From: Myxococcales bacterium
Lineage (GTDB): Bacteria > Desulfobacterota > Binatia > UTPRO1 > JBBIJE01
DNA: 64,000 nucleotides
Assembly (NCBI GenBank): GCA_037446155.1
Contig: JBBIJE010000008.1
Location: 94,049 to 158,048 of the forward strand
Reading direction: 5' to 3'
A program made the translations under genes and the position numbers. Positions 20,050-47,380 of this stretch are shown here, piece by piece. The notes under the pieces were generated by a model, which had not been told where the DNA came from, ran no database searches, and saw nothing but the letters and a program-made list of their open reading frames with translations. Each line of letters opens with the position of its first letter. Positions within the stretch are counted from its first letter, which is position 1.

Positions 20050-20065
20050 TGGCATGAGCGTTGCA
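20050..20065 (+). promoter_or_regulatory. Sigma-54 (-24/-12) promoter upstream of the NtrC-type regulator gene.
   Basis: TGGCATGagcgTTGCA matches the TGGCACG-N4-TTGCA consensus, with GG and GC at the correct spacing. It lies about 220 bp upstream of the ATG at 20287. Confidence 0.55.
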
Positions 20066-20286
20066 GTGGCATACCCCAGACACCAGTTATGGACGGGCGC
20101 AGTGAATAACGCTGTTTTATATGGACTGATTCCGGGCCACCCAGCCGCCCGCATGGGTTTGGCCCTAGAGGTAATTCTCGGCCCCCATCCAGTAGCCTCG
20201 AGGGGGAAGCCTAGTTTGGAGGGCTATACCATTATCGGGCTCGGTGAGCCTGGCGCGGTGAGACGGAAACGCACGAGAGGGGTGCT

Positions 20287-26418: not shown

Positions 26419-26431
26419 GTTCCCTCCCTGC

Positions 26432-28525: not shown

Positions 28526-28759
28526 AGGTCATGCATCCTCCACTTTCGGATCTCGGCCGACCGGCCCGACCGCGATAGCCCTGGGAACAATAACGGCAGC
28601 GCGACTCTACAGCCAGCAACCTCCCCCCACCCTCTGGTGTCCTGCAAGCCCAGACGCGAGCTTGCGCCGGCTAGACGGCATTCAGAGCCTAGCGCAAGGG
28701 GGGGAAATCTACAATAATGATTCGTGTCGCGACAATCGCGGTCGAAAGAGGGGAAAGGT

Positions 28760-29905
28760 ATGCGGATCTACGCAGACGCGGGGGGCTCGGCACTTGGTTG
28801 CGTGCAGCGAAGAGGGCTGCGGGCGGGGCTCGTTGCGGTCGCGGGCCTGGTGGCGACGGTGTTCCTTAGCGGCTGCCCTGCTCGGAAATCGGGCATGGAG
28901 CTTATACCGCTCATGTGGCCCGAGCCCCCCGAGACTCCGAGAATCCGGTTCGTCACGGCCTTCGCCAGCGAAAGGGATTTGAGGAGCGGCTTCGATGTGG
29001 GCAAGTTCCTGCAGGACGTCGTCATCGGAAAGCCGCCGCCTGTTTGGCACCTCTACGCTCCGATGGGCGTGGCGGTTTCCGATGACAAGCGGGTTTACGT
29101 TGCCGACTATGGGCAATCGATGGTTTACATATTCGACCTCAAGCGAAACCGCGTAAAAACCATCGGGGAGGACGGAGGCTTCGGTAAGCCCACGGATGTA
29201 GCGGTTGACGCCAAAGGGGAGGTGTACGTTCTCGATCAGCCGAGCAACGCGGTGGTTGTACTCGATGCCGACGGCAATTCGCTTCGGGGCATGGCGCTCG
29301 AGCACGTTATTCGCCCGACCGGGATAGCGATCGACGACCAAAGAGGGCGCATGTACGTGGCGGACTCCTCGAAAAGGGAGTCTACCGAGCACTATGTCAG
29401 GGTGTACGATAAAGAGAGCGGAGCGTTTATCCGAAACATCGGTAACGGCAGGGGATTCGAGGAGGGAAACCTCTACTTTCCCACCTTCGTTGCGGTGGAC
29501 AGCACGGGGAATATCTACGTCTCGGACACGATGAATAGCCGCGTGGTGAAATTCGACCCCGAGGGGAATTTTCTCATGACCTTCGGTAAGAGGGGGGACC
29601 AGTTCGGCGAGTTCGACAAGCCCAAGGGGGTAGCTCTCGATACCTTTGGCAACCTCTACGTGGTCGACTCGAGCTGGAGCAACGTCCAGATCTTCAATCA
29701 ACGTGGCCAGGTCCTTCTCTTCTTCGGTGGCAGAAGCCGCTACCCTGGCATGCTCGAGAACCCAACCGGGATAGACATAGACGGGAATAACACGATTTAC
29801 GTGGCCGATACCTTCAACCGCCGCGTGAACGTCTATCAACTGGTAAATACCACCGCAGGGGACAGCTTTCTCCAGTTGCCCGAGCCGAGCGGGGAGGAGA
29901 AGTGA
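28760..29905 (+). CDS. NHL-repeat six-bladed beta-propeller lipoprotein.
   Basis: Lipobox FLSGC. Repeated NHL blades P.GVAVD..G.VYVAD..N..V..FD. Start chosen at ATG 28760, which has a GAGGGGAAAGG RBS (the ORF-track start at 28724 is a GTG). Confidence 0.7.
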   Translation: MRIYADAGGSALGCVQRRGLRAGLVAVAGLVATVFLSGCPARKSGMELIPLMWPEPPETPRIRFVTAFASERDLRSGFDVGKFLQDVVIGKPPPVWHLYAPMGVAVSDDKRVYVADYGQSMVYIFDLKRNRVKTIGEDGGFGKPTDVAVDAKGEVYVLDQPSNAVVVLDADGNSLRGMALEHVIRPTGIAIDDQRGRMYVADSSKRESTEHYVRVYDKESGAFIRNIGNGRGFEEGNLYFPTFVAVDSTGNIYVSDTMNSRVVKFDPEGNFLMTFGKRGDQFGEFDKPKGVALDTFGNLYVVDSSWSNVQIFNQRGQVLLFFGGRSRYPGMLENPTGIDIDGNNTIYVADTFNRRVNVYQLVNTTAGDSFLQLPEPSGEEK

Positions 29906-30714
29906 AAGGCGCTGGGAGAGCCGCGCGCGCCGCCGTCGTTGTCGGGACGCTTATCGCCGTTGCAGCTTGTCCTCGATTCGCGGCTGGCGGGCCGGATCCT
30001 GGAACCGGCATTACCGATAGCCCCCACGACCTAACCGCGGGGCACGGAACCGCCTCGACGACCGACGAAGCCGCAAGCATTTGCGTCTTTTGTCATGCGC
30101 CTCACGGAGGGGGCGGCCAGGCGCCCGTCAGCACGAGGCTTCTCTGGAACCACAGGCTTTCCGCCCAAAGCTTTAGCTGGAGCGATCAAACCCATACGGT
30201 TGGGGGGACGGAGCTTCCGACCAACATAGGCACATGGGCGGGGCCCAGCAAGAATTGCTTGTCTTGCCATGATGGGACGGTCGCGGTTGGCGATGTTCTG
30301 CGCACCGGTTCTCCTGGGCTCCCCTCGTTTACCGTGACAGGCTCCCGCCTCGTTGACGGGAAGATCGCCGCGGGTAACCTCATCGTGGTCGAACCGGGCG
30401 GAGATTTGAGCGGAAACCACCCGGTCGGTGTGCCCTATCCTTTCGGAGGTGTGCCCAGCACTTACAACAACATCGCCACGGGGCCAGGTGTGGAGCTTTC
30501 CGAGTACGTTGCCGCGCCGGTAAACGTCAAGCTCTTCACCGACATCGGAAATGACGTGATAACCGGACCGACGACCGGGAGGACAGGGATCGAGTGCGGA
30601 AGTTGCCACGACGTTCACAACCGACGGGCCTTGGATCGCCCTCTGTTGCGAGACCTTTTCACGTCGGGGGCAGGGGCTTCGGCGCGTCTTTGCTTGGACT
30701 GCCATAATCTCTGA
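29902..30714 (+). CDS. Tetrahaem c-type cytochrome (doubled-CxxCH type), paralog A.
   Basis: Signal peptide VVVGTLIAVAA. Haem motifs CVFCHAPHG, CLSCHDGT, CGSCHDVHN and CLDCHNL. The GTG start overlaps the NHL gene stop. Confidence 0.75.
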   Translation: MKGAGRAARAAVVVGTLIAVAACPRFAAGGPDPGTGITDSPHDLTAGHGTASTTDEAASICVFCHAPHGGGGQAPVSTRLLWNHRLSAQSFSWSDQTHTVGGTELPTNIGTWAGPSKNCLSCHDGTVAVGDVLRTGSPGLPSFTVTGSRLVDGKIAAGNLIVVEPGGDLSGNHPVGVPYPFGGVPSTYNNIATGPGVELSEYVAAPVNVKLFTDIGNDVITGPTTGRTGIECGSCHDVHNRRALDRPLLRDLFTSGAGASARLCLDCHNL

Positions 30715-30822
30715 GGCTCTCCGGGCCGCGGCATTTCTCGCAGAGCTTAACTCTAGGCCCATCGTCGCGGCTCTATTGCCCACGGGAGGGGTTTTATCTC
30801 GGCATCCTGCGCAGCGACGGGC

Positions 30823-30859
30823 TGCGAGAATCTCCGCAGCCGCTGCGCGAGAATCCGCA
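30823..30859 (+). promoter_or_regulatory. Tandem 16-bp dyad elements TGCG-N8-CGCA (candidate enhancer or UAS for a sigma-54 activator).
   Basis: TGCGAGAATCTCCGCA (30823-30838) and TGCGCGAGAATCCGCA (30844-30859). Their centres are 21 bp apart, about 75-110 bp upstream of the sigma-54 promoter at 30933. Confidence 0.45.
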
Positions 30860-30932
30860 ATCCAAGGGCGCGAGTTTCGGGCGCCGAGGCGGTAACATAT
30901 GGAGAAAGCAGACGTTTTTTTATCCTGGCATG

Positions 30933-30948
30933 TGGCATGAGAGTTGCT
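30933..30948 (+). promoter_or_regulatory. Sigma-54 (-24/-12) promoter upstream of tetrahaem cytochrome paralog B.
   Basis: TGGCATgagagTTGCT has correct GG/GC spacing. It lies 60 bp upstream of the ATG at 31009. Confidence 0.55.
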
Positions 30949-31008
30949 CGAAGGGCGTGCCAGGGGCGCCGGTGGCGTGACCCAAATTTCAGGAAGAGGA
31001 GGAAAGCT

Positions 31009-31815
31009 ATGAACGTTAGAAAAGGGTGCCACGTAACAGTAGCCTTGTGCGCGGGGCTTGCGCTGGCGCTCGCTCCTAAGCTCGTGTGGGCCCAGGCCGC
31101 ACCGGGTGCGGGAATCGAAGATAGCCATCACGATTTCACAGCCGGGCACGCGACCGCCTCGACGACCGATGCCGGAGCGGGGATTTGCATCTTTTGCCAT
31201 GTACAGCACCGGCAGGGGGCTCCAGCGACTGCCAGCACGAGGCTTCTTTGGAACCACAAGCTCTCGTCGTTGAGCTACTCATGGAGCGACGTTACCAAGA
31301 CGGTCGGTGGGACGGATTTGCCGACCAACCTTGGGACTTGGGCCGGGCCTTCGAAGAACTGCCTCTCTTGCCACGACGGGACGGTCGCGGTGGGTGATGT
31401 GTACCGTACCGCCGCATTCCCCGCGACGTCGTTCACGGTCACCGGGACCCGGATCACCGATGGGAAGATCAGCGCAAGCTTTCTCCTGATCCCGAGCGCC
31501 ACTGGCGATCTCAAGGGTAACCACCCGGTCGGCGTGCCCTATCCCTTCGGCGGGGCGCAGAGCACGTACAATGGGATCACCACCGGCTCGGGCGTAGCCA
31601 CCGGTGATTACAAAGCCGATCCGCAAAACGTCCGCATCTACACCGACGTGGGCAACGATTACCAGATCGGTGGAACCACCGGGCAGGCCGGAATCGAGTG
31701 CGGAAGCTGCCACGACCCGCACAACAGGGACGTCAAGGAAGATCCGCTTCTTCGCGATTTCTTCACGCTCGGGAGCGGTTCTCCGAGCGCGATCTGCCTA
31801 GACTGCCACTTCTAG
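31009..31815 (+). CDS. Tetrahaem c-type cytochrome (doubled-CxxCH type), paralog B.
   Basis: RBS AGGAAGAGGAGGAAAGCT-ATG. Haem motifs CIFCHVQH, CLSCHDGT, CGSCHDPHN and CLDCHF. It is collinear with paralog A along its whole length, including the shared NCLSCHDGTVAVGDV block. Confidence 0.75.
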   Translation: MNVRKGCHVTVALCAGLALALAPKLVWAQAAPGAGIEDSHHDFTAGHATASTTDAGAGICIFCHVQHRQGAPATASTRLLWNHKLSSLSYSWSDVTKTVGGTDLPTNLGTWAGPSKNCLSCHDGTVAVGDVYRTAAFPATSFTVTGTRITDGKISASFLLIPSATGDLKGNHPVGVPYPFGGAQSTYNGITTGSGVATGDYKADPQNVRIYTDVGNDYQIGGTTGQAGIECGSCHDPHNRDVKEDPLLRDFFTLGSGSPSAICLDCHF

Positions 31816-31863
31816 TTGGCAGGCTGGCCGCGCGGCGCGTGCTAGCCGCTCGGCTGAGGAATG

Positions 31864-31897
31864 AACCCGGGGAGCGATAGGCTCCCCGGGTTTTTTT
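31864..31897 (+). terminator. Rho-independent terminator.
   Basis: cccggggagc-gata-ggctccccggg forms a perfect 10-bp GC stem and is followed by TTTTTTT. It lies 49 bp after the paralog B stop. Confidence 0.75.
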
Positions 31898-31973
31898 GAT
31901 TCCGCTCTCCCTGCGCGGCGGGCCCTGTGCTAACCTTTCCTAAATGAGGTGGACTTGCCGTCGGATGGGGGGG

Positions 31974-32648
31974 ATGAAGCTCATTCTCGCTCGCACTCGC
32001 AGAGTTCTTGGAGCTTGGCGGCTAACTCGCTTGCGCAGCGGATCGCTTAGACTAGTGGCGCTCGCTTCGGCCCTGCTCTTCGTTGCCTGCGAGAGCCGAA
32101 CCCGCTACCTCGTTCTTTCACGACTCGTTGACGGGATGCCGTCTTACGAGGAGTGGCTCGAATCTTCCCCTCCCAAGCCGCTTCGCCGCTATGCGCCGCG
32201 CAAGACTCGCGAGGCTTTGGCTCCCGCCCCCGTAATGCCGACCCCCGAGCCTGCGAGAAACGAGATCGAGCAGGCGAAGGCGAAAGATGAAGCCTTCGCC
32301 ATGCTCCCCAAGGACGATAGCGGTGCCGTGGATTGGGTTGCCGCGCTCCGCGAGGGCGTGATCTCGCCTAGAACCGCGATCGAAGGTGGAGGCGAGCCGC
32401 TGGAGCAGATGCCGATCGACGTGGAGATAGGAGCGGAAGACCCGGCAACGAGCGCGATCTTTCCCCATCCGGCTCATACGCAGATCATACTCTGCGACTC
32501 CTGCCATCCGGAGCCATTCCAAATGGCGGCCGGCTCGACGGAGATGTCGATGGATGCGATGTACGAAGGCCGCCTCTGCGGCCAGTGCCACGGGACGGTC
32601 GCCTTCGGCTTGGAGAGTTGCGGCCGGTGCCATCCGAACATGCGATGA
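31974..32648 (+). CDS. Trihaem c-type cytochrome lipoprotein. The start is uncertain (31944 or 31974).
   Basis: Lipobox LLFVAC. Haem motifs CDSCHPEPF, CGQCHGTVAF and CGRCHPNM are clustered in the C-terminal 60 aa. Confidence 0.6.
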   Translation: MKLILARTRRVLGAWRLTRLRSGSLRLVALASALLFVACESRTRYLVLSRLVDGMPSYEEWLESSPPKPLRRYAPRKTREALAPAPVMPTPEPARNEIEQAKAKDEAFAMLPKDDSGAVDWVAALREGVISPRTAIEGGGEPLEQMPIDVEIGAEDPATSAIFPHPAHTQIILCDSCHPEPFQMAAGSTEMSMDAMYEGRLCGQCHGTVAFGLESCGRCHPNMR

Positions 32649-32983
32649 GGACTCTGGTAGCCTACACTATGAGCCTGGCATTGGGGCTGGGCGTTTGGGC
32701 TGTCTCTGTACCCGTGGCCCAAGCTGGGCCGGGAGACATCGTATTCGAGCGCGAGAAGGCCGTGGGCGTGGACCCAGCCGTCTTCCCGCACTGGATCCAC
32801 CGAATACGCTACACTTGTAGTGTGTGCCATCCGGCGCTTTTTCAGATGAAGCGCGGCGAGGATCCGGTCACGATGAAAAGCATCGCCGCCGGCGAACACT
32901 GCGGTAAGTGCCACAATGGGCGCGTTGCTTTTCCGATCTCGCTCACGACCTGCGTGCGCTGCCACTATATCCCGGCAGACTGA
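32645..32983 (+). CDS. Trihaem periplasmic c-type cytochrome (c7/c3-like, small).
   Basis: ATGA start overlaps the upstream stop. Signal peptide MRTLVAYTMSLALGLGVWAVSVPVAQA. Haem motifs CSVCHPALF, CGKCHNGRVAF and CVRCHYIP. The CxxCHxxxxAF spacing is the same as in the upstream gene. Confidence 0.7.
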   Translation: MRTLVAYTMSLALGLGVWAVSVPVAQAGPGDIVFEREKAVGVDPAVFPHWIHRIRYTCSVCHPALFQMKRGEDPVTMKSIAAGEHCGKCHNGRVAFPISLTTCVRCHYIPAD

Positions 32984-33415: not shown

Positions 33416-36400
33416 ATGCGAGGACAAGGTAGGACGACATTGGTCATCGGCGCCGTGGGTTTGCTGGCGCTATTTTTTGCGTCGGGTAAAGCCCTTGCCG
33501 ATCCGAGTTATTTCACTTCGCGGTGCGCGCTTTGCCATGCGGACGATACGCCGACTTGTGATGGGTGTCACGGGCACGTGGTTGGGGGCCTCAAGGCTGT
33601 GACCGACAAACAGCAATATTTACCTGGTGAGACGGTTACCGTGACTTTTCAGTCCTGGAATTGGGGCGGTTGGGTTAGGGCGGTCTTGTATGACGAGACG
33701 ATGACGGAAGTGGATCGGGTAACGGGTCCCACGGGGACTGGGGACGATGGTAGTGGGGATCCGAGTCTGTGGTTTCCGGTGGTTTTGAGTGCGCCTGCAC
33801 CTATGGCATCGGGGTTTTACACGTGGAGCGTTGGGTGGTTCGGGAGTCCTGGGACGCCAGGAGGTGCGTACCCGCACATCCAGGATGTGGTTTCCACGAA
33901 CCAGTTCGAGGTGACGACCTCCGGTAGCACCACTACCACGACCAGCACTACTACGACGAGCACCGCGAGCACGACGACGAGCACTGCAAGCACGACGACC
34001 AGCACGGCGACAACGACCTCGACCACGACGACTACGACATTGCCGCCTCCCGCTGCGGAGCTGGATCATTTCTTGTGTTACGCGACGAAGCTCAAGAAGC
34101 TGATTTCGGTAGATCTGAGCGACCAGTTCGATTCAGGAACCTACACCGGCAACGTAGCCAAACTCTTTTGCGCGCCCGCGGACAAGAATGGCGAGGGGAT
34201 CTCCGATCCGGATACGCATCTTCTGTCCTACAAAATCAAGGGCTTGCATGTGGGCCGGACGAATGTGGAGGTTTTGGATCAGTTCGGGACGTACGTCTAC
34301 GACACGAAGAAAACCGATAGCCTGATGATTCCGACGGCAAAGAGCATAGCTCCGGCTCCTCCGCCCGGCCCGCCGAATCCAGCGAGTTTGGTGGATCATT
34401 ACCGGTGTTTGAAGGTGAAGACGAGCGCTGGGACGCCCAAGTTTCCGAAGGACAAGAGCGTTCAGGTTGTGGATCAGTTCGGGGCCGCGCGGACCTTCTT
34501 CGTGAAGAAGCCCTCTCGGTTGTGTTTGCCTGTGGACAAGAACGGGGAGGGGATCAAGAACCCGGACATGCACCTCATGTGTTACAAGGGCAAGACGTCG
34601 GTTAGAACGTCTGCCGTTGGAGTGCAGATCAACAACCAGTTCGGTGCGGATACGATCGCGCTAAAGAAGGAGGCAGAGCTTTGCCTGCCAGCTCGAAAGA
34701 ACCCGCGGAAGGTAAATCCGGGAGACCCGGTGTTGGCGCCGGCTGCCGGGTACATCGGGTCTCCGACCTGCATGGAGTGCCACGAGGAAAAGTACTGGGG
34801 CTGGATCGACACGCTCCATCGGTTGCCGATTCGTGACACCAACGAGCCTGGGCTTACGGGCAAGGCTATCGTGGCGGACAGCGACGGTGACGGGACGGAC
34901 GACTTCAAGGAGGGAACGAATCTCGCAACCGCGCCAAACGCCACCCCATTTGCCGTGTACGGCTCCAACGCGCCGGTATTAGGGTTCGATCCCGGCCGGG
35001 TGGATCCGAACAGCGGAGCGATGGGGGTTTACACTATCACGATCGGGCCCATCACTTACGACATAACCCGCACGCACGGCGGAAACGGGTACTGGAAGCA
35101 ACGCTATCAGACCAGGATAGGTGACAGTTACTACTACCTGCCGGTTCAGTACAACGAGACCGCTAACGCATACGTCGTTTACAATGGCGGCGACTGGTAC
35201 GACGGCTCGAACAATCCGCGCTACACCAATCCTGCTACACTCGAGGCCGACATCGACAAGAGTCGTTCCTACGAGCGCAACTGTGCGGGATGTCACAACA
35301 CCGGCGTCGACGTCGAGGTGGATGGCGCCGGGCAGTGGGTGACAGGGTACGTGGAGCTCGGGATCGGCTGCGAGGACTGCCACGGGCCGGGTGAAACTCA
35401 TGCGGCGAGCATGGATCCCGCCGACATCATAAACCCGGGCAAGTTCGGGCCGTGCGACGGCGACCTGGTTGCGGGCGACGGCAACAAGGACGGTACCTGC
35501 AGGGAATCCGGCGTGCCTTGCGATGCGGTGGATTTACCATTCCCGGTGAACTCTCCTGATTGCCTGGCTTCTGCGAACGAAGTCTGCGGCCAGTGCCACG
35601 GCCGTGGGGCGAGCACCCTGGTGATGAACGGCAAGACGTTGGGCTACCCGGCCAAAGACGACGGTGCCGGCGGCTTCCAGGGGTTCGTACCGGGCAATAT
35701 CCTGGCAGACTTCTACGCCTTCACGACCTCGACCGGGGACTACTGGGGTTTGAACCAGGTGTTTGGCGGGGAAGGGCACACGGTTCCATCGAGCCCGAAC
35801 TCGTTCGTAGCCTCCAAGAGCCATCACCAACAGTACCTCGACTGGCTCATCAGCCCGCACGCGCCCGATAACTTCTACGACCCGACGTGCTTTAGCTGCC
35901 ACGACTCGCACGGAAGTGGTAACGAGCACAACATCGTGGAAAGCCTCGAGGAAGACGGGGTCGAGATTCCGACCAAGGTGGATGACAATAGTCTCTGCTT
36001 GGCTTGTCACGCGACTCACGGCCCCTTTGCGGGCGTGACCAAGGAGCAGGTGGCCGAGATCGGCTCGGGGACCACGCCGCCCGAGATCGTTGACGCCGTC
36101 CTCGACCACATGGCCGAGGAGGCCGGGATGGGTGGAGCCTACGATCCACTGGGATCCGGTGTGGGCCGCTGCACGAGCTGCCATCTGCCGCAGCTTGCGA
36201 AGTCGGCGGTAGGGGGCACGGATGCCGAGGGACACACCACGGGCGACGTTACCACTCACACCTTCACGATCATCTGGCCTAGCGTGAACGAGCGCCTGAC
36301 CGGAAGCGACAAGAGCATGAGCAACTCCTGTACCGGCTGCCACAGCACGGGCTCGCCACTCGGCATGGACGAGGAGCTCTTCGAGTGGGCCAAATCGGGC

Positions 36401-37330
36401 CACGCCGACTTGACCGCACGGCACTGGCGGTATGCGGCGGGCGAGGAGCGGGCGGCTTGCGTGCGGTGTCACTCGGGCAACGGGTTCGTCGATTTCCTCG
36501 CGGGGATCCCCGAGGGGGATCGGCGCACCGAGCCCAAGATGGTCACCTGCTACGCTTGTCACGACGGGACACCGGGCGACTTGCACCCGGTGCGCGCGGT
36601 GGCTTCGGTGACCTTCCCGTCGGGGTCGGTTATCACGGCGGGTGACGATGCCAAGATCTGCATGAACTGCCACCAGGGCAGGCAGAGCAAGAGCAGTGTG
36701 GACACGTACCTGCTGACCCACCCCGATCCGAGCCCGATCAACTTCGGCTCCGTCAACCCGCATTACTTCGCGGCTGCGGCGGTCTTCTTCGGCTCCTCGG
36801 TTAGCGGTATGTACCAGTACGACGGCAAGACCTATCTCGGTGAGTCACCCCACCGGCCGTTCAAGGGTTACTGTCTCGACTGCCACTTGAGCGAGACGCC
36901 CGGTAGCGACGACGTGGGCGGGCACACGATGGCGATGGTCGCCGACGGCCAGGAGAACACGGCAGGTTGCGGTTGCCACGCTTCTCAACCTGGCTTGGAT
37001 GCCTACAGGAACCCGTTTGGCGGAGCCGTGGACTACGACGGCGATGGGAACACCTCCGAGGGCATCAAGGGTGAGATCCAGACCATGATGGACGATCTCA
37101 TAGCGGCTCTGAACGCTGCCGGCATCACCTGCACCGACTCGTATCCGTACTGCTCGGGCTGGAACGGCACGACCGAGCAGCAGAAGAGCCAGCTCAAGGC
37201 CGCGTACAACTACCGGTTCTTGAAGACCGAGCATGGCGCTTATGCCCACAACGGGCTGTACGCGCTCCAGATCTTGCACGACTCGTATGCAGATTTGACG
37301 GGAGGCCCGCACGCAGGTGTAAGGCCCTAG
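33416..37330 (+). CDS. Giant secreted multidomain c-type cytochrome of 1304 aa. Order: N-terminal dihaem module, Thr/Ser-rich linker, four copies of a cysteine-containing repeat, then a C-terminal multihaem domain of about 12 haems, for about 14 CxxCH in total.
   Basis: RBS GAGGAGGAGG. Signal peptide LVIGAVGLLALFFASGKALA. CxxCH motifs are CALCH, CDGCH, CMECH, CAGCH, CEDCH, CGQCH, CFSCH, CLACH, CTSCH, CTGCH, CVRCH, CYACH, CMNCH and CLDCH. The linker is about 40 residues of S/T. Confidence 0.8.
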   Translation: MRGQGRTTLVIGAVGLLALFFASGKALADPSYFTSRCALCHADDTPTCDGCHGHVVGGLKAVTDKQQYLPGETVTVTFQSWNWGGWVRAVLYDETMTEVDRVTGPTGTGDDGSGDPSLWFPVVLSAPAPMASGFYTWSVGWFGSPGTPGGAYPHIQDVVSTNQFEVTTSGSTTTTTSTTTTSTASTTTSTASTTTSTATTTSTTTTTTLPPPAAELDHFLCYATKLKKLISVDLSDQFDSGTYTGNVAKLFCAPADKNGEGISDPDTHLLSYKIKGLHVGRTNVEVLDQFGTYVYDTKKTDSLMIPTAKSIAPAPPPGPPNPASLVDHYRCLKVKTSAGTPKFPKDKSVQVVDQFGAARTFFVKKPSRLCLPVDKNGEGIKNPDMHLMCYKGKTSVRTSAVGVQINNQFGADTIALKKEAELCLPARKNPRKVNPGDPVLAPAAGYIGSPTCMECHEEKYWGWIDTLHRLPIRDTNEPGLTGKAIVADSDGDGTDDFKEGTNLATAPNATPFAVYGSNAPVLGFDPGRVDPNSGAMGVYTITIGPITYDITRTHGGNGYWKQRYQTRIGDSYYYLPVQYNETANAYVVYNGGDWYDGSNNPRYTNPATLEADIDKSRSYERNCAGCHNTGVDVEVDGAGQWVTGYVELGIGCEDCHGPGETHAASMDPADIINPGKFGPCDGDLVAGDGNKDGTCRESGVPCDAVDLPFPVNSPDCLASANEVCGQCHGRGASTLVMNGKTLGYPAKDDGAGGFQGFVPGNILADFYAFTTSTGDYWGLNQVFGGEGHTVPSSPNSFVASKSHHQQYLDWLISPHAPDNFYDPTCFSCHDSHGSGNEHNIVESLEEDGVEIPTKVDDNSLCLACHATHGPFAGVTKEQVAEIGSGTTPPEIVDAVLDHMAEEAGMGGAYDPLGSGVGRCTSCHLPQLAKSAVGGTDAEGHTTGDVTTHTFTIIWPSVNERLTGSDKSMSNSCTGCHSTGSPLGMDEELFEWAKSGHADLTARHWRYAAGEERAACVRCHSGNGFVDFLAGIPEGDRRTEPKMVTCYACHDGTPGDLHPVRAVASVTFPSGSVITAGDDAKICMNCHQGRQSKSSVDTYLLTHPDPSPINFGSVNPHYFAAAAVFFGSSVSGMYQYDGKTYLGESPHRPFKGYCLDCHLSETPGSDDVGGHTMAMVADGQENTAGCGCHASQPGLDAYRNPFGGAVDYDGDGNTSEGIKGEIQTMMDDLIAALNAAGITCTDSYPYCSGWNGTTEQQKSQLKAAYNYRFLKTEHGAYAHNGLYALQILHDSYADLTGGPHAGVRP
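33915..34045 (+). repeat. Low-complexity ACC/ACG/AGC codon repeat encoding the Thr/Ser-rich linker inside the giant cytochrome gene.
   Basis: About 130 nt of imperfect triplet repeats (accaccacgaccagcactactacgacgagcacc...) encoding TSGSTTTTTSTTTTSTASTTTSTASTTTSTATTTSTTTTTT. Confidence 0.5.
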
Positions 37331-37491: not shown

Positions 37492-38706
37492 CTAGCCGAT
37501 GGCGTCGAGACCGGTTATGTCCCTGCCGACTATGAGCGTGTGCATGTCGTGGGTTCCCTCGTAGGTCTTTACCGTCTCGAGATTCATCATGTGGCGTATC
37601 ACCGGGTATTCGTTGACGATGCCGTTCGCCCCGAGGATGTCTCTGGCCAGGCGCGCTATCTCCAGCGCGTGCGCGACGTTATTGCGCTTGGCGAGCGAGA
37701 TCTGCTGCGGCCGCGCCAAACCCGCGTCCTTGAGCTTTCCCAGCCTCCAGGCCAGAAGCTGGCCCTTCGTGATCTCGGTTAGCATGTACACGAGTTTCTC
37801 CTGTACCAACTGGTACCCCGCTATCGGCCGCCCGAACTGTACCCTTTCCTTGGCGTAGGAAAGGGCCGTCTGGTAGCAGGTGATCGCCGCCCCGAGTGCC
37901 CCCCAGGCGATTCCGTAGCGTGCCTGGGAGAGGCAAGAGAGAGGAGCCTTGAGGCCCCTTGCCAGGGGAAGCCTGGCTGCTTGCGGTACTCTTACCTCCT
38001 CGAGGACGAGTTCGGAGGTGATCGAAGCGCGCAGCGAGAATTTCCCTCTTATGTCGGAGCTAGAAAAACCCGAAAGACCGCGCTCCACCAAGAATCCGAG
38101 GATTTCCCCGCTACTCTTGTCCTTCGCCCAAACGACCGAGACGTCGGCGATCGAACCATTGGTGATCCAGCGCTTGGTGCCATGGAGAACCCAGCCGTCC
38201 TCGGTCTCCACGGCGCTGGTTCGCATCCCGGCCGGGTTCGATCCGAAGTCGGGCTCGGTCAAGCCGAAACACCCGACGGCCCCTCCGCGCGCCAGCAAGG
38301 GGAGCCAGCGCTCCTTTTGTTCCTCGCTTCCGAACCGGTGGATTGCGTACATTACCAGTGAGCCCTGGACCGAGGCCATCGAGCGGAGCGCGCTGTCGCA
38401 CCCTTCGAGCTCCTGCATTATCAGCCCGTAGCTTATGTTATCGAGGCCGGGGCATCCGTATCCTGACAAGTTGGCGCCGAAAAGCCCGAGCTCTCCCATG
38501 CGCCCGATGAGATGGCGCGGGAAATCGCCCCGCGCGTGGTACTCCTCGATTATCGGCGCGCACTCGCGCTCCACGAAAGCCGCCACAGAGGAGCGCACGA
38601 GCTTTTCCTCCTCGCCCAGGAGCTCCTCCAGCCCGTAATAATCCACCCTGGACTGCATCGTCATAGTGGATCCCTCCCCATAATCTTTGCCTTCCGCTTG
38701 GTTCAA
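37492..38706 (-). CDS. Acyl-CoA dehydrogenase family protein (glutaryl-CoA dehydrogenase-like).
   Basis: Typical ACAD three-domain layout across 404 aa. Includes the FAD/CoA-binding motifs (G)CFGLTEPDFGSNPAGMRT and WITNG. Confidence 0.8.
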   Translation of the reverse strand: MNQAEGKDYGEGSTMTMQSRVDYYGLEELLGEEEKLVRSSVAAFVERECAPIIEEYHARGDFPRHLIGRMGELGLFGANLSGYGCPGLDNISYGLIMQELEGCDSALRSMASVQGSLVMYAIHRFGSEEQKERWLPLLARGGAVGCFGLTEPDFGSNPAGMRTSAVETEDGWVLHGTKRWITNGSIADVSVVWAKDKSSGEILGFLVERGLSGFSSSDIRGKFSLRASITSELVLEEVRVPQAARLPLARGLKAPLSCLSQARYGIAWGALGAAITCYQTALSYAKERVQFGRPIAGYQLVQEKLVYMLTEITKGQLLAWRLGKLKDAGLARPQQISLAKRNNVAHALEIARLARDILGANGIVNEYPVIRHMMNLETVKTYEGTHDMHTLIVGRDITGLDAIG

Positions 38707-38845
38707 GGTCGCTTAAGGTAGCCGCCCTTTGCCCAGGGGCGGCCTCTTGCAATTAGCATAAAAGGGGGTTATGTGTTTCTAAAAAAAGTCCCCGGGGTAT
38801 ATCAGGGGGGCTTATGAATGTGGATCCCTTGGTGCGTGGGAAGTC

Positions 38846-39724
38846 ATGCATTTAGAAACACTGGGGGTATTCTGCGACCTTATCGAGAGCGGCAGCTTCT
38901 CTATCGCCGCAACTCATAATTTCATCACCCAGTCGGCGGTGAGCCAACAGATCAGGGCGCTCGAGAATCGCTTCGATCGGAAGCTCGTGGAGCGCACGCG
39001 GGGAAGGATAAGGCCGACACCGGCTGGTGATATCTTATACCAGATCGCGAAGGAGATCATAACCCGCTACCGGGAGCTCGAGGACAAGCTCAACGCCTTC
39101 TCGAACGTGGTGACCGGCTCGGTAAGGCTAGCCACGGTGCACAGCGTCGGCCTCTATGAGCTTTCCGGGCCGCTCAAGAAATTCCTCAAGGCTTTCCCGC
39201 AAGTCAACGTGCACCTCCAGTATCGCCGGTCGAACATGATCATCGAGGAGATCCTGCGGGGAAACATCGACATCGGGATCGTCGCCTACCCGACGGCGCG
39301 CCCGCAGATCGGGGTAGTGCCGTTTCGCGAGGACAAGCTCGTGCTCGCCTGCCCGCCGGGGCACCACTTGGCGCGCTTTCGTCGCGTACCGCTCAAGAAG
39401 CTTGCCGGGGAAGCGTTCGTGGGCTACGAGCGTGACATCCCCACCCGCAAGGCCACGGATAGGATCCTCAGAAAGGCGGGGGTGCAGGTGCGCTACGTGA
39501 TGGAGCTCGACAACATCGAGACGATAAAGCGCGTGGTGGAGATCGGCACCGGGATCGCGATCGTGCCCGAGCCGGCTATCCGCCAGGAGGTGAAGAACCG
39601 AAGCCTGGTAGCGGTCCAGCTCGGCGACGAAGATTTCATTCGTCCCGTGGGTATCGTTCACAAGCAGGGCCGGGTATTCTCGCCGGCGGTGGAAAAATTC
39701 ATCGAGTTCCTGCGCAAGGGTTAG
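38846..39724 (+). CDS. LysR-family transcriptional regulator.
   Basis: N-terminal HTH SFSIAATHNFITQSAVSQQIRALE followed by a LysR substrate-binding domain. 292 aa. Confidence 0.8.
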   Translation: MHLETLGVFCDLIESGSFSIAATHNFITQSAVSQQIRALENRFDRKLVERTRGRIRPTPAGDILYQIAKEIITRYRELEDKLNAFSNVVTGSVRLATVHSVGLYELSGPLKKFLKAFPQVNVHLQYRRSNMIIEEILRGNIDIGIVAYPTARPQIGVVPFREDKLVLACPPGHHLARFRRVPLKKLAGEAFVGYERDIPTRKATDRILRKAGVQVRYVMELDNIETIKRVVEIGTGIAIVPEPAIRQEVKNRSLVAVQLGDEDFIRPVGIVHKQGRVFSPAVEKFIEFLRKG

Positions 39725-40665
39725 GTGCTAGCTACGGCCGGGATCACTTGCTCGGCGAAAAGCCGAAGAGTGTCCGGGTGGGCGCCGTCGCTGAACATCA
39801 GCGCAAAAAGGGTAACGCCCGCCGCCACCTTGCCCCGCAGCGTCTCGGCGACCCGGTCGGGCGTGCCCGCAACGGCCAGGTTGTTCAGGTCTGCGAAGCC
39901 GGCCCACGCCTGCTTGGCATCCGCCCATTTGGCTTCGAAATCTCTTCGGTCCCGCCCGAGCACGACCAGGCACTGCTCCGAGATCGTGATCTGGCTTATC
40001 TCCCTTCCCACCCGGCGGCAGTGACGCTCGAGGGCCTCTATCTTGCGCTCGATTTCAGGCGCGGCGTTCATGGGGCAGTTCCACCGGTCGGCATGGGTAG
40101 CCACGACTCTGAGCAAGAGCTTTTCTCCGGCGCCGCCCACCGTGATAGGAGGATGGGGCTTTTGCACGGGCTTGGGATCGTTGACGGCCTGCTCCAGGGA
40201 ATAATACTTCCCCTGAAAATCGGCGCGCTCTTGCGTAAACAGGCGTCGAATCACCTCTAGCCCTTCGTCGAGCTGCTCTATTCGCATCCTCGCGGAAGGG
40301 AAAACGTAGCCGTAGCCCCGGTACTCCTCCTCCATCCAGCCTGCTCCGAGTCCGAGCTCCAGCCGCCCTCCACTCACGCAATCGAGCGTCGATGCCATCT
40401 TGGCGACAAGCGCTGGGTTGCGAAAGGAATTGCAGAGGACGAGTGTGCCGAGTCGAAGGCGCTTGGTGGCAGGTGCCAGCGCACACAGCGTGCTCCAAAC
40501 CTCGAGATAGCTGCGATCGGGGAAACCGCGCATCCACATGTGGTCCGGAAGCCACAAGGAGTGAAAGCCCAACTCGTCCATGGCCTGGGCGCGCTCGCGG
40601 ACTTCCGAAAACGTCACGCCGACCGGCAAGAGGAACACACCAAAACTTGCCTGCTTCCCGTCCAT
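39721..40665 (-). CDS. Luciferase-like monooxygenase (LLM) family oxidoreductase, flavin- or F420-dependent.
   Basis: TIM-barrel LLM motifs FHSLWLPDHM and LGLGAGW. 314 aa. Confidence 0.7.
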   Translation of the reverse strand: MDGKQASFGVFLLPVGVTFSEVRERAQAMDELGFHSLWLPDHMWMRGFPDRSYLEVWSTLCALAPATKRLRLGTLVLCNSFRNPALVAKMASTLDCVSGGRLELGLGAGWMEEEYRGYGYVFPSARMRIEQLDEGLEVIRRLFTQERADFQGKYYSLEQAVNDPKPVQKPHPPITVGGAGEKLLLRVVATHADRWNCPMNAAPEIERKIEALERHCRRVGREISQITISEQCLVVLGRDRRDFEAKWADAKQAWAGFADLNNLAVAGTPDRVAETLRGKVAAGVTLFALMFSDGAHPDTLRLFAEQVIPAVAST

Positions 40666-40813
40666 CTCCCCCCGGCCCGCGCAATTAGATCACAGGACCG
40701 ACTTGGATGTGAAGAGGGCTGGCGTGATCTTTCCCGTCGCGATACTCTCGCTCGCGCCCGGGCTCTTCTCCCATTATAATCTAATGAGTTAGGTCCTTCG
40801 GGAAGGAGACGAA

Positions 40814-41899: not shown

Positions 41900-41937
41900 G
41901 GGGCCGGCGGGGCAGGCGGCTGGCACAGGGCGGAGCG

Positions 41938-43042: not shown

Positions 43043-45517
43043 TTGTGCCGGAAGCTTGCTAGCGCTGCGATCGTCGGTCTGTTTTTCCTTGGCCTTGCCG
43101 GGGGAAGCGCACTTGCCGACCCGAGCTACTTCGCCATCCGCTGCGCCCTTTGCCACTATGACGACAACCCGACCTGCTCCGGCTGCCATCAGCACGTTCA
43201 GGGCGGCCTCGTGGCGAGGACCGACAAGACTCAGTACTGGCCCGGCGAAACCGTAAGAGTGACGCTTTCGTCGTGGGACTGGCCGGGTTGGGTGCGGGCG
43301 ATCCTTTACGACCAGAGTGGGCGCGAGCTCACGCGCGTAGGCGGGGCCACCGGAACCGGCGACGACGGAAGCGGCAATCCCGCGCTCGAGCTCCCCGTGG
43401 TCTTGGTTGCCCGCGCTCCCCTGACGGCGGGGTCTTACAGGTGGACCGTGGCGTGGTTTGGCAGCGGAGGCTCTCCCGGCAACGAGTTTCCCCATCTGGA
43501 AGAGCCGGTACCGACGAACTCCTTCGACGTCAGCGGCAGTCCCCCCAGTACGACGACCACCACCACGTCCTCCACTACTACGACCGTTCCAAGCACCACG
43601 ACGACCACCACCACCACGACCACCACCACGGCGACCGCGACCACGACCAGCACTACCGCGAGCACTACGACCACGAGCACCTCCTCCACCACCTCCACGA
43701 CGCTTCCGGGCCCCCTCGACGATTTCCTCTGTTACAAGGTGCGGGCTAGGCAGGACGTCAGCGTAAATTTGAGCGATCAGTTCGATTCGGGCCAATATCT
43801 GGGGAGGGTGGCAAAGCTTCTCTGCGCGCCGGCTGACAGCGGCTCGGGTATATCGCACCCGCAAACGCACCTTATGTCTTATCGGATCCAGGGGCCCCAC
43901 CTGCGGCGAACGGGCATCGAGGTGGTGAACCGTTTTGGCACCTATTACTTCGACACCAAGAAGACCTACAGCCTCATGGTGCCTACGGCAAAGAGCCTGA
44001 TTCCCGACCCGCCGCCGGGGCCGCCTGACGCCGGCGCCGTGGACCACTATCGGTGTTTGACTATAAGGACAACGACGGGCACGCCCGAATTTCCAAATGG
44101 GCTTACGATTGCCGTAACCGACCAGTTCGGAACCCACAACTTCGCGATCAAGAAGCCGCGCACCCTCTGCGTGCCCACCGACAAGAATGGAGAGGGAATC
44201 GAGCGGCCACAGGCATACCTTACCTGTTACAAGGGAAAGGCTGACCCGAGGGTGTCCGTTGCAGGGGTCCAAGTCAACAATCAGCTTGGGCAAGCCGTGT
44301 TGAACCTGAGCAAAGAGATAGAGCTTTGCGTGGCCTCTCAGCCGCCACCTGGACCAACCACGACTACGACGACCACGACGAGCAGCACGACCAGCACCAC
44401 GGTCACGCCCACTAGCACCACTACCACCACGACCACCGTGCCGGGCAACGAGCCGCCGACGATCGCCGTTAGCGCCGATCGCACTGAAGGGCCCATAGCC
44501 TTGAGCGTTCGGTTTAGCGCTTCGGCTACCGACCCCGATGGAGAGGTCGTTGCGATCCACTGGGATTTCGATGACGGCACGGTGGGGAGCGGGGCTTCGC
44601 TTTCTCACGTATTTCACGTGGCCGGCGGCTACAGAGTTACCGCCACGGCAACCGACAACCGGGGAGGGCAGGCACGGGCTACGATCCCAATAGCGGCAAG
44701 GCCGCTCGCGGGCGGGTCCGTGGATCAGCCGTATCCGACCCGCCTGGCGCTCGGACCCCAGGGGAAGCTCTACGTAACCGATGCCTCCGCCGGGTCGGTC
44801 TTCGTTTACGATTCTAGTTTGAATCCTGCGGGCGAAATCGCTGGGATCGATCTTCCCTTGGGTGTGGCGGTCGACAGCCAGGGGCGAATTTACGTGGGTA
44901 GCGACGGGGCCGACTCGGTCGAGGTCTACGACGGCGCCGGGGTCAAGCTTTACAGCATCGATGCGGGCGGGATCTCGATGCCGAACGACATTGTCATAGA
45001 TACCGCGGACATTCTCTACGTCGTCGATAGCCGGGCGGATACGGTGCGAGTGTATAACGCCGCAGGCACGTGGCTTAGAGACATCGGGGGCCCGGGCGAC
45101 GGTGCGGGAGAGTTGCGCTTTCCCGCCGCGGTGGCCATCGGCGGCGAGCCGCCGGAGCTTTACGTAGCCGATCAGGGCCACTCGCTCGTTCAGGTTTTCG
45201 ATCCCGGCGGAACGTTCCTGCGCAGTTTCGGCGGGGCGGTGGGGGCGTTTTCACCGCAATGGAAGGGCCTCTTCGTGAGGATGCAGAGCCTTTCGCTGGA
45301 TGGACGCGCAGCCTTGCAAGTGGCTGATACCTACATGGATCGGGTGCAGTTTCTCGATCGCACGACGGGTGAGTTTCGCGGCTACTACGGCGAGTTCGGC
45401 GGTGGCGCCGGGCAGCTCAATCTACCCCTCGACCTGGTGGTTACTGGGGACAACCGAGCCATCGTGGCGGACGCGGAAAACCACCGGATCCAGTGGTTCG
45501 ATCTCGAGGTGCCCTAA
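43043..45517 (+). CDS. Secreted paralog of the giant cytochrome. Same N-terminal dihaem module, Thr-rich linker and four cysteine-containing repeats, followed by a second Thr-rich linker, a PKD domain and a C-terminal NHL beta-propeller.
   Basis: TTG start 10 nt after AGGAGG. Signal peptide ...LASAAIVGLFFLGLAGGSALA. Haem motifs CALCH and CSGCH. The PKD domain shows IHWDFDDGT. Repeated NHL blades LYVTDASAGSVFVYD and LYVVDSRADTVRVYN. It is collinear with 33416..37330 over the first 430 aa or so. Confidence 0.75.
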   Translation: MCRKLASAAIVGLFFLGLAGGSALADPSYFAIRCALCHYDDNPTCSGCHQHVQGGLVARTDKTQYWPGETVRVTLSSWDWPGWVRAILYDQSGRELTRVGGATGTGDDGSGNPALELPVVLVARAPLTAGSYRWTVAWFGSGGSPGNEFPHLEEPVPTNSFDVSGSPPSTTTTTTSSTTTTVPSTTTTTTTTTTTTATATTTSTTASTTTTSTSSTTSTTLPGPLDDFLCYKVRARQDVSVNLSDQFDSGQYLGRVAKLLCAPADSGSGISHPQTHLMSYRIQGPHLRRTGIEVVNRFGTYYFDTKKTYSLMVPTAKSLIPDPPPGPPDAGAVDHYRCLTIRTTTGTPEFPNGLTIAVTDQFGTHNFAIKKPRTLCVPTDKNGEGIERPQAYLTCYKGKADPRVSVAGVQVNNQLGQAVLNLSKEIELCVASQPPPGPTTTTTTTTSSTTSTTVTPTSTTTTTTTVPGNEPPTIAVSADRTEGPIALSVRFSASATDPDGEVVAIHWDFDDGTVGSGASLSHVFHVAGGYRVTATATDNRGGQARATIPIAARPLAGGSVDQPYPTRLALGPQGKLYVTDASAGSVFVYDSSLNPAGEIAGIDLPLGVAVDSQGRIYVGSDGADSVEVYDGAGVKLYSIDAGGISMPNDIVIDTADILYVVDSRADTVRVYNAAGTWLRDIGGPGDGAGELRFPAAVAIGGEPPELYVADQGHSLVQVFDPGGTFLRSFGGAVGAFSPQWKGLFVRMQSLSLDGRAALQVADTYMDRVQFLDRTTGEFRGYYGEFGGGAGQLNLPLDLVVTGDNRAIVADAENHRIQWFDLEVP
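43549..43705 (+). repeat. Low-complexity ACC/ACG codon repeat encoding a Thr/Ser-rich linker; a second copy lies at 44355-44441.
   Basis: Encodes TTTTTSSTTTTVPSTTTTTTTTTTTTATATTTSTTASTTTTSTSSTTSTT. The complementary strand gives artefactual poly-Val ORFs (43435..43698 and 44338..44580). Confidence 0.5.
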
Positions 45518-45529
45518 AGGCTTTGAAAG

Positions 45530-47380
45530 ATGAAAAGCAGCGTGATCAAGGGAACGGGCCTGCTCTTTGCCGTGGCGGTCCTGTGCCTGCCTTCGAGATC
45601 GCAGGCGCTCGATCCCCCTCACAATGCGAGCAACCACATCGACTGTAACTCTTGTCACGCCGTGGTCCCCGCCTTCATCCCGCTTCGCCAAAGGCAGGAG
45701 AGCGCCTGCAAGACCTGTCACAACCCGACCGGTCAGGCATCCACCCGTTCGACTGCGCTTCGGAACCACGTGGTAAACGGGGGGAGCAAGATCGTGGATT
45801 GCGGATCCTGTCATGATCCGCACGGTCCCTCGATCACGACGGATCCCCATACCGGGCGGAGAGCGACCAACCTTTGGTTGATCCGCTGGGATACGGCTAA
45901 GTACGTTGCGGGGGCCCTGGAGCCCGCGATCTTTCACGAGCGGCCGGCGCATTTCGCGTTCGGCGACGCCAATCCGCCTTGGAACGGCGCATGCCAGACC
46001 TGCCACGCGCAGACGAGCCATCATCGTAACGACGCCACATCCGACCACAGCCACCAGTTGGGAGATGACTGCACGCAATGCCATCTTCACGGAAGCGGCT
46101 TTTTGCCCGCCGGGGGTGGCGGGGACTGCACGGGCTGCCACAGCGGGCCGCAGGACAACGGGGACGGAGTTCCGCCGGGCGGTCGGCGCGCTGTGGTTTC
46201 CGAGTTTCCGACCGGAGACGAGGGCCTACACGCCCATTACGGGGCGGAGCTTGGAAGCGACGACTGCGTCATCTGCCACAGCCAGGATACGCACATGGAC
46301 GGATACGTGGACCTGATCGATCCCGACGACGGCAGCATGTACCGCTTCAAGCTCAGGGGAGATCTCTTATCCGATCCTGATCTCTCCGATTTCTGCGCTC
46401 ACTGCCACGACGCCGATGGCGCCGCGCGGCTGGCCACTCCGCTGGATCCCTTCGGGAACGGAAACGCACCGCCCGATGTCGCCACGCGCTTCCAGGGAAC
46501 CCTCAGGTGGGACGAGTGGTACGGTGACTTCTGCTTCGGCGAGGAAGGTACGCTGCGCCAGGTCAACAGTCACCATGACATCAGCGACTCCGATCAGGCC
46601 TGGAGCGGAGCGAAGATCGAATGCCTAAGCTGCCACGGGGCGCACAACCCTTCGGCCGCTCGCCCCGTCGTCGATCCCTTCGACACCGCGACTCCGTGGA
46701 CCGGAAAGGACAACGGATTTTGCTTGAGCTGCCACGCCGGCGGAAACGGACCCGCCGATCCGGACTTCCCCGCCGGTGTCGTCGGCCCGGCAGTTCCTCT
46801 GCGCGGCCTCGATACTTGCTACTACACGGGCGGGCCCTGGTGGGTCGATTATACCTGGACACACGCGGCGCACGGTCTCGACTCCAAGCGCGCTTGGTCG
46901 GGTTACTCGGGCGCGCCGGGATACGAACTGCCCTGTCTCGGGTGTCACGACCCGCACGGGTCCTATACGCCCGCCAACCCGGCCGGGAATCCTTATATGA
47001 TCCGGGACTTCGTCGATGGGACGCAATTCGTGGACGACGGGACGCGCACCGGAGGCTTCACCGGTCCCCCCTGGAACACGTTCGGTACCTCGGGCCCGGT
47101 GGTCGTGACGATAAGCGGCACCGACGTGGATTGGGGAAGCTCGCAGAGTCTGTGTGGCCGCTGCCATGCAAGTTGGCTTGCGGCCTACGACTGGCACGCG
47201 TACTGTACGGGTTGTCAAACTTGCCACGGTCACGGCCAGGCGTGGGGCAACGCCGACTGGGTCGGTTTTGACGACGACACCCCGTGCCCGGTAGGGGGGA
47301 GCGGCATTGCTGGGGGCACCGGATCGGGCCGGCTGCTCTTCGACCGCAAGAACCCGCCAATTCATTTCGGGGCGCAGTAA
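45530..47380 (+). CDS. Secreted multihaem c-type cytochrome with 13 CxxCH motifs.
   Basis: Signal peptide LLFAVAVLCLPSRSQA. Haem motifs CNSCH, CKTCH, CGSCH, CQTCH, CTQCH, CTGCH, CVICH, CAHCH, CLSCH, CLSCH, CLGCH, CGRCH and CQTCH. It starts 12 bp after the upstream stop, so it is in the same operon. Confidence 0.8.
   Translation: MKSSVIKGTGLLFAVAVLCLPSRSQALDPPHNASNHIDCNSCHAVVPAFIPLRQRQESACKTCHNPTGQASTRSTALRNHVVNGGSKIVDCGSCHDPHGPSITTDPHTGRRATNLWLIRWDTAKYVAGALEPAIFHERPAHFAFGDANPPWNGACQTCHAQTSHHRNDATSDHSHQLGDDCTQCHLHGSGFLPAGGGGDCTGCHSGPQDNGDGVPPGGRRAVVSEFPTGDEGLHAHYGAELGSDDCVICHSQDTHMDGYVDLIDPDDGSMYRFKLRGDLLSDPDLSDFCAHCHDADGAARLATPLDPFGNGNAPPDVATRFQGTLRWDEWYGDFCFGEEGTLRQVNSHHDISDSDQAWSGAKIECLSCHGAHNPSAARPVVDPFDTATPWTGKDNGFCLSCHAGGNGPADPDFPAGVVGPAVPLRGLDTCYYTGGPWWVDYTWTHAAHGLDSKRAWSGYSGAPGYELPCLGCHDPHGSYTPANPAGNPYMIRDFVDGTQFVDDGTRTGGFTGPPWNTFGTSGPVVVTISGTDVDWGSSQSLCGRCHASWLAAYDWHAYCTGCQTCHGHGQAWGNADWVGFDDDTPCPVGGSGIAGGTGSGRLLFDRKNPPIHFGAQ

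Follow-up and report, generated by a model that had tools for sequence, protein, structure and literature searches.

A four-unit DUF7450 module shared by a multihaem cytochrome and a PKD-NHL paralog in a Binatia-like bacterium, with its predicted fold and candidate role

Two paralogous proteins, here called A and B, are encoded in a 64,000-nucleotide stretch of a Myxococcales bacterium genome (GTDB lineage Binatia; contig JBBIJE010000008.1 of assembly GCA_037446155.1, positions 94,049 to 158,048; hereafter the window), and both carry a module of the Pfam family PF24247, DUF7450. In A the order of parts is signal peptide, dihaem/Ig-like domain, Thr-rich linker, DUF7450 module and 12-haem cytochrome body; B has the same N-terminal cassette, which is followed by a Thr-rich linker, a PKD domain and an NHL beta-propeller. 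Each protein holds one DUF7450 copy built of four units of ~50 amino acids (aa), which almost certainly arose in two rounds of duplication, from a unit to an odd/even pair and from the pair to the four-unit module.

Four units and a catalogued family

The initial annotation of this DNA, made from its letters, had described a four-copy, cysteine-containing repeat in both proteins. Four homologous Cys-containing units are indeed present in each of A and B where it had placed them, and every peptide that it quoted is found. The units span nt 34061-34699 of the window in A (aa 216-428) and nt 43715-44341 in B (aa 225-433); the span of 43740-44340 given earlier for B has the right location and a start ~25 nt late. 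Unit order and Cys positions are identical between the paralogs, as had been noted. Smith-Waterman comparison of unit against unit yields z-scores of 4.4 to 16.2 relative to shuffled sequences. A single-unit hidden Markov model (HMM) of 62 positions, built from DUF7450 family sequences, recovers four complete units, no more and no fewer, from each protein, at independent E-values between 1e-12 and 1e-28. Profile-profile comparison gives E=3.5e-44 for half 1 against half 2, 3.6e-32 for unit 1 against unit 3, 2.2e-20 for unit 2 against unit 4, and 1.7e-10 for unit 1 against unit 2.

The division into two full and two short units that had been proposed is a boundary artefact: with each unit begun at (D)H[FYL]xCY, none of the four is cut short. 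The [LV]DH[FY]xCY segment, taken before as bracketing each full and short pair, is real, and forms the opening strand of units 1 and 3; the H-L-x-C-Y-K tail of the supposed full units is, in turn, the first strand of units 2 and 4. The PPPGPP spacer that was thought to accompany each pair is found behind the second pair in B only, not in A. After the boundary shift the unit consensus reads LDHLLCYKVKRAKGTPKFTKRTGVTVNDQFGTLTVDVKKPRELCVPSDKNGEGIKDPD, with the signature H-x-x-C-Y-K ... D-Q-F-G ... K-P-x-x-L-C-x-P-x-D-K-N-G-E-G. The KNGEG loop closes the odd units (1 and 3), where it takes the near-invariant form D-K-N-G-E-G-I-x-[DN]-P, and not the even units (2 and 4), a pattern accounted for by the two duplication rounds seen in the profile-profile hierarchy.

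Both modules are further members of a known, uncharacterised family. By hmmscan, A matches PF24247 (described as 'Repeat of unknown function') with 72.8 bits (E 3.4e-20) and B with 54.4 bits (E 1.6e-14), well over the gathering threshold of 27 bits; the isolated repeat regions score 79.0 and 59.1 bits, respectively. The suggestion that the repeat matches no domain and might be an undescribed one is thus superseded, as the family is already catalogued, and the region should be labelled DUF7450 and not 'novel domain'. A Pfam match with a known role had been named as the outcome that would overturn the suggestion; the match exists, and the family, a DUF, brings no known role with it. The literature searched gave no mention of DUF7450 or PF24247, and NCBIfam no match to the repeat segment. 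The Pfam model comprises 151 positions, about three units, and aligns to aa 284-424 of A, out of phase with the natural four-unit module of ~215 aa in A and B. A word-indexed search returned 62 relatives, mostly covering >90% of the 231-aa query, and most of them bear a precomputed PF24247 annotation; 77 of 78 scanned homologues match the model, with a best E of 1.5e-113. The Pfam scan finds no catalytic family inside the module of A or B, and aa 216-429 of A contain no CxxCH haem-attachment motif, as a c-type cytochrome domain would.

Predicted fold, cysteine pairs and constraint

AlphaFold2, given a 64-sequence alignment, models the full module as all-beta with high confidence (pLDDT 95, pTM 0.90). 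The PPPGPP linker between the halves is also confident (pLDDT 97), so that the four units are predicted to form one rigid body; the half-module of units 3 and 4 modelled alone gives pLDDT 91 and pTM 0.79. Each unit follows the plan strand(H-x-x-C-Y-K-x-K) - strand(V-x-V-x-D-Q-F-G) - hairpin(...V-K-K-P-x-x-L-C-x-P), and the module as a whole is polar and Lys-rich. Foldseek detects no relative of the full module in the PDB (best E 0.19, TM<0.2) or in BFVD (best E 0.21), and none of the half-module in the PDB (best E 0.22); searching all PDB sequences with a profile (hmmsearch) returns 0 matches at E<=10. A four-bladed propeller or an outer-membrane barrel, considered for the 4 x 4 strands and some weak barrel matches, was rejected on the absence of a Foldseek match and on the polar composition, and the folding of the half-module on its own also speaks against either.

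The Cys of the first strand (xCYK) and that of the last strand (LCxP) are either both present or both absent in the 64 sequences, with no mixed case. The counts of both present and both absent are 33/10 for unit 1, 3/57 for unit 2, 60/2 for unit 3 and 59/2 for unit 4; unit 2 of both A and B has S/M in place of the pair. This co-variation is strong comparative evidence for one intra-unit disulfide between the first-strand and last-strand Cys. Both proteins appear, from a reading of their N-termini, to start with Sec-type signal peptides ending in ALA-DP, and a crude count puts such peptides in 190 of 246 homologues. Taken with the perfect Cys co-variation, the signal peptides argue that the module probably folds under oxidising conditions, whether periplasmic or extracellular. 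A disulfide-stabilised, all-beta module in both paralogs, probably extracellular or periplasmic, agrees well with the co-variation, the AlphaFold2 model and the putative signal peptides, largely as the initial annotation had suggested; the beta-sandwich that it named, like a beta-propeller, a cystine knot or any other solved fold, finds no significant match in the PDB searches above.

Beyond the Cys pairs, the conservation table singles out the KNGEG loop (90-98% conserved) and one His per unit (H119 98%, H59 95%). These residues raise the question of whether the module binds a metal, Ca2+ or a small ligand through its D-K-N-G-E-G-I-x-D/N-P-D loops and D-H motifs, with a structural or regulatory effect. 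We consider this improbable as the main role. The near-invariant acidic and amide residues in two loops per module, the conserved His, and the co-occurrence of MopE-type metal-binding motifs, RTX and Calx-beta in a few homologues would fit it; but the module matches no known Ca2+- or metal-binding family, and the loop departs, in our own reading of the motif, from EF-hand or dockerin spacing. Such binding would also be compatible with the binding-module role that we favour below, and not exclusive of it.

The module of A is under purifying selection and is as constrained as the cytochrome body. Synonymous sites are saturated between A and B (pS 0.75), and for this reason an ortholog was used instead, encoded at a syntenic locus (L083, 9344-13258; 1304 aa, 95% aa identity to A). 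Compared with this ortholog, the module shows 47 synonymous and 13 non-synonymous differences, which corresponds to a dN/dS of 0.065; the value for the cytochrome body is 0.067. The same locus holds an ortholog of B as an intact, full-length open reading frame (ORF) at 18898-21456, of 852 aa. Public gene calls shorten both L083 orthologs, letting them start past the Thr-rich linkers, despite the intact ORFs.

Family-wide distribution and candidate role

An exhaustive profile search of 1.84 billion representatives finds 7,214 proteins at E<=1e-3, each a representative cluster at 50% identity, and 2,781 at E<=1e-30. At the level of genome loci, a search with a 12-sequence alignment as query matches chiefly metagenome-assembled genomes (MAGs) labelled Candidatus Binatia or 'Deltaproteobacteria', next Myxococcota and Acidobacteriota, and a few Actinomycetota. 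Many DUF7450 loci per genome are common, with nine or more in OFTM125. The number of units is a multiple of four in 183 of 206 homologues (4 in 152, 8 in 24, 12 in 6 and 16 in 1). No more than 25 aa separate the module from the C-terminus in 170 of these 206 and in 214 of the 291 homologues of the extended set; where it is not C-terminal, it stands directly behind the signal peptide or internally. Its pI has a median of 8.7 and ranges from 4.1 to 9.8, so that a basic charge offers no decisive hint of binding. Passengers are very diverse and mainly unannotated. Those that could be named include DUF4215 and disintegrin-like Cys-rich repeats, subtilase, penicillin amidase, beta-helix, Calx-beta, RTX and Rhs, together with propeller types (YWTD, FG-GAP, PD40, SGL, PQQ and NHL). 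No neighbour gene is conserved: the top neighbour family occurs in 5 of 80 loci, on which ground a conserved operon partner was rejected.

The terminal position, the diversity of passengers, the lack of a fixed neighbour and the absence of any catalytic match or CxxCH argue for an accessory or targeting role, and we tentatively favour DUF7450 as a non-catalytic, passenger-independent targeting or anchoring (binding) module. Rhs proteins usually bear a toxin domain at their C-terminal end. Three Rhs/YD homologues (P0266, P0300 and P0313) carry DUF7450 at the opposite, N-terminal end (aa ~7-335), a placement that we count in favour of the same role. Secreted proteins are known to use terminal, non-catalytic binding or anchoring modules of this kind, such as the CBM2-type carbohydrate-binding modules and the SLH domains. 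Like these, DUF7450 is terminal (C or N), independent of its passenger, all-beta and disulfide-stabilised as predicted here, and present in many paralogs per genome; it also sits at times on Thr/Pro-rich linkers, though this holds for few homologues. Unlike these, it has no conserved aromatic platform, and no sequence or Foldseek similarity ties it to such families. A Thr/Pro-rich tether as a general trait of the family was itself rejected, with a T/P/S-rich tether upstream in 18 of 194 homologues (~9%).

The strong preference for the C-terminus (74-83% of homologues), on such diverse passengers, could also be that of a secretion or sorting domain that an export or attachment machinery would recognise, by analogy with the C-terminal domain of the T9SS or the autotransporter beta-domain. 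The top Foldseek matches, all insignificant, are beta-barrel outer-membrane proteins and autotransporter beta-domains, which would be in keeping with this; their TM-scores, however, are <=0.16, and they are hence not real matches. N-terminal, internal and tandem copies exist, the module is polar, Lys-rich and probably disulfide-bonded, and it is found in MAGs labelled Actinomycetota as well. No Pfam match to Por_Secre_tail or to an autotransporter family appears at E<=10, and no conserved machinery gene lies alongside. A sorting function is for these reasons very improbable.

A different possibility, which we hold to be unlikely, is that of a passive rigid spacer or stalk that sets the distance and geometry of flanking domains and has no specific ligand, as do Ig-like, Big or SdrD_B repeats of surface proteins. 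Some homologues have tandem arrays of two to four modules, the module is predicted to be rigid, and its neighbours in A and B are low-complexity linkers and other domains. Against a stalk, single terminal copies prevail, with exactly four units in the 152 homologues counted above, and a C-terminal spacer has nothing to space. Proteins made of the module alone exist too, and the KNGEG loop and the conserved His and Asp exceed what a mere spacer needs.

The binding or anchoring role becomes more specific when A and B are considered, and there the arrangement is atypical: the norm is a C-terminal module on a non-haem protein, and the two paralogs carry it internally, joined to a multihaem cytochrome in one and to a PKD-NHL propeller in the other. 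Co-occurrence with multihaem cytochromes had been put forward as something to look for across the family, and the family as a whole does not show it. Not one of the first 206 homologues carries two or more CxxCH motifs; in the extended set five of 291 do, three of them being A or B orthologs. A general link between DUF7450 and multihaem proteins was thus rejected, on the count of 0 of 206 and on the later CxxCH matches going back to A/B orthologs. Among the module-bearing ORFs of the genome loci, 3 of 63 have at least two CxxCH (L031, L034 and L037). Two of them, L031 and L034, show the layout tetrahaem domain - TP linker - C-terminal DUF7450, which we count for the analogy with an anchor.

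These figures also bear on a direct redox function, in which the module would take part in electron transfer by thiol-disulfide exchange or would donate an extra haem or metal ligand to the cytochrome. Its place in A between the dihaem domain and the 12-haem body, and its conserved Cys and His, might suggest as much. Yet it has neither CxxCH nor CxxC, the two Cys of a pair are 30-40 residues apart, unit 2, and unit 1 too in many homologues, can dispense with the pair, proteins with at least two CxxCH are as rare in the extended set as stated, and the same module in B precedes a PKD-NHL region that is not redox-active. We disfavour this explanation and regard it as the least credible of those weighed here.

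A and B are colinear over aa 14-427 of A with 56% identity; the paralogs thus share the entire N-terminal cassette and not the repeat alone. The motif scan counts 14 CxxCH in A, two ahead of the module (positions 37 and 48) and 12 behind it (452 onward); B has only those at 34 and 45. The start of B is backed by a public ortholog of 824 aa with the same start (P0241, which begins MCRKL), and a second ortholog is P0240. The dihaem and Ig-like part, of ~140 aa in both proteins, matches no Pfam or NCBIfam model. It has relatives that are stand-alone secreted proteins of ~180 aa, likewise of no Pfam family, which makes A and B three-part mosaics; the gene context of these stand-alone homologues revealed linkage neither to cytochromes nor to NHL proteins. 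The Thr-rich low-complexity linkers around the module are written in ACC-type codon runs.

A comparison with a homologous cytochrome provides the most direct clue to what the cassette may do. P0242 (L085, 1989-4580; 863 aa) shares homology with A over everything from aa 425 onward (33% identity) and starts with a lipoprotein signal (LASC) at the place of the 424-aa cassette of A. Residue 425 of A aligns to aa 32 of P0242, and the sequence that follows unit 4 in A begins within ~10 residues of LASC. A rotamase (peptidyl-prolyl isomerase, PPIase) gene lies near P0242. Outer-surface multihaem cytochromes of the MtrC/OmcA type are lipoproteins. The lipid anchor of P0242 occupies the same place as the cassette of A, immediately N-terminal to the homologous 12-haem body; unlike the acylated cysteine of P0242, A uses a protein cassette of some 400 aa, and by analogy the two may be functionally equivalent. 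With a lipid anchor in P0242 where A has its cassette, and the same cassette in B, a co-localisation of both working domains is suggested.

In the mechanism that we propose, the cassette common to A and B (signal peptide, dihaem/Ig-like domain, Thr-rich tether and DUF7450) would stand in for the lipid anchor of the homologous cytochrome. It would bring the 12-haem cytochrome and the PKD-NHL propeller to one common site, in the envelope or outside the cell, and the working domains so placed would belong to a multihaem-cytochrome/NHL gene cluster. A stronger form of this proposal, which we consider doubtful, would make DUF7450 an unrecognised fold that serves as a proteinaceous surface or matrix anchor in replacement of lipidation, tethers the 14-haem cytochrome and the NHL propeller at the same extracellular site, and forms part of an undescribed extracellular electron-transfer apparatus of Binatia-like bacteria.

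Several points weigh against a targeting or anchoring module. The step to function is taken from position and architecture alone. Stand-alone proteins consisting of a signal peptide and the module (P0022 and P0036) are better fitted by an autonomous function, and the tandem arrays of 8 to 16 units (e.g., P0064 and P0077) look more like stalk or adhesin repeats. Flexible upstream T/P/S-rich tethers are confined to the small minority given above, the internal module of A and B is itself a minority arrangement, and the comparison with a lipoprotein involves P0242 as a single homologue at the modest identity already stated.

What is new here is the definition of the unit boundaries and of the four-unit module, the disulfide rule, a confident model with no known structural relative, the family census, and the atypical cytochrome and NHL fusions of DUF7450 with their lipoprotein counterpart. 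The family is large, with its 7,214 clusters and its many paralogs per genome in MAGs of Candidatus Binatia, Myxococcota and Acidobacteriota, and yet is only a DUF. Because its model is so confident and Foldseek detects no relative in the PDB, DUF7450 is a good target for structural genomics, for which the four-unit architecture and the rule of one disulfide per unit provide exact construct boundaries. The window is one of few functional handles on DUF7450, in that the module takes the position of a lipoprotein anchor before a multihaem cytochrome and is shared with an NHL paralog. The hypothesis that results is that DUF7450 may anchor or co-localise extracellular redox proteins.

Gene neighbourhood in the window

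Multihaem cytochromes (4, 4, 3, 3 and 13 CxxCH, with one more on the minus strand) and NHL propellers are densely packed at 24595-32983 and 45530-47380, on either side of A and B (Table 1), and this cluster resembles those of extracellular electron transfer. Clusters that combine NHL and multihaem proteins are known in that process, e.g., the Uet cluster of Tenderiales and Gallionella (PMC10734462). Like Uet, the window combines NHL propellers, small trihaem c7-like cytochromes and large multihaem cytochromes, a likeness by gene content; unlike Uet, neither a porin nor a peptidyl-prolyl isomerase was recognised in the window, and DUF7450 is not reported for such clusters (PMC10734462).

Table 1 Features of proteins A and B and of flanking genes (positions in the window)
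Feature	Position	Strand	Details
NHL propeller protein, two tetrahaem and two c7-like trihaem cytochromes	28724..32983	+	upstream of A
Protein A	33416..37330	+	1304 aa; ORF and translation
A putative signal peptide	33416..33499	+	aa 1-28, ...FFASGKALA-DP; Sec-type n-h-c pattern with AxA, as read from sequence
A N-terminal dihaem (CALCH, CDGCH) and Ig-like domain	33500..33910	+	common to B
A Thr/Ser-rich low-complexity linker	33911..34051	+	sequence composition
A unit 1	34061..34213	+	aa 216-266; Cys pair C220/C251; unit HMM i-E 2.3e-19
A unit 2 and PPPGPP inter-half linker	34214..34390	+	core aa 267-312; Cys pair replaced by S/M; unit HMM 1.7e-16
A unit 3	34391..34567	+	aa 326-384; Cys pair C330/C369, KNGEG loop; unit HMM 7.8e-28
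A unit 4	34568..34699	+	aa 385-428 (386-429 by unit HMM); Cys pair C388/C422; unit HMM 1.9e-16
A 12-haem cytochrome body	34688..37327	+	aa 425-1304; Pfam Cytochrome_C7, Paired_CXXCH_1, weak MtrC-like match
Protein B	43043..45517	+	824 aa
B N-terminal dihaem (CALCH, CxGCH) and Ig-like domain	43118-43531	+	counterpart of A 33500-33910
B Thr-rich linkers	43532-43705 and 44342-44446	+	either side of DUF7450 module
B unit 1	43715..43864	+	aa 225-274; unit HMM 1e-13
B unit 2 and PPPGPP linker	43865..44038	+	core aa 275-319; unit HMM 6.9e-16
B unit 3	44039..44212	+	aa 333-391; unit HMM 3.2e-26
B unit 4	44213..44341	+	aa 391-433 (393-433 by unit HMM); unit HMM 6.2e-12
13-haem cytochrome	45530..47380	+	directly downstream of B

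The two trihaem ORFs of the upstream group (31944-32648 and 32585-32983) overlap by 64 nt. Near A, the opposite strand encodes another multihaem cytochrome, an unannotated 696-aa protein and a TSP3-repeat protein. The 696-aa ORF (26432-28525, minus strand), which adjoins the multihaem cytochrome of that strand, has no Pfam match and a conserved counterpart in L083; possibly it encodes a porin or another partner of the cytochromes. Just upstream of the cytochrome cluster, at 18446-21660, lie a sensor histidine kinase (sCache/HAMP) and a sigma-54-dependent response regulator, a two-component pair that may regulate the cluster.

The interval between A and B (37492-42774) holds genes for an acyl-CoA dehydrogenase, a LysR regulator, a luciferase-like monooxygenase, an aspartate-semialdehyde dehydrogenase and a C92 peptidase. 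This block of five genes is syntenic in L083 and in a further locus, L084, in which the B ortholog is present and the A ortholog is absent from the corresponding position. Further along the window, two Smr-domain proteins are encoded <6 kb apart, a small stand-alone Smr protein (49956-50720, minus strand) and one of the MutS2 type (54140-56476, plus strand).

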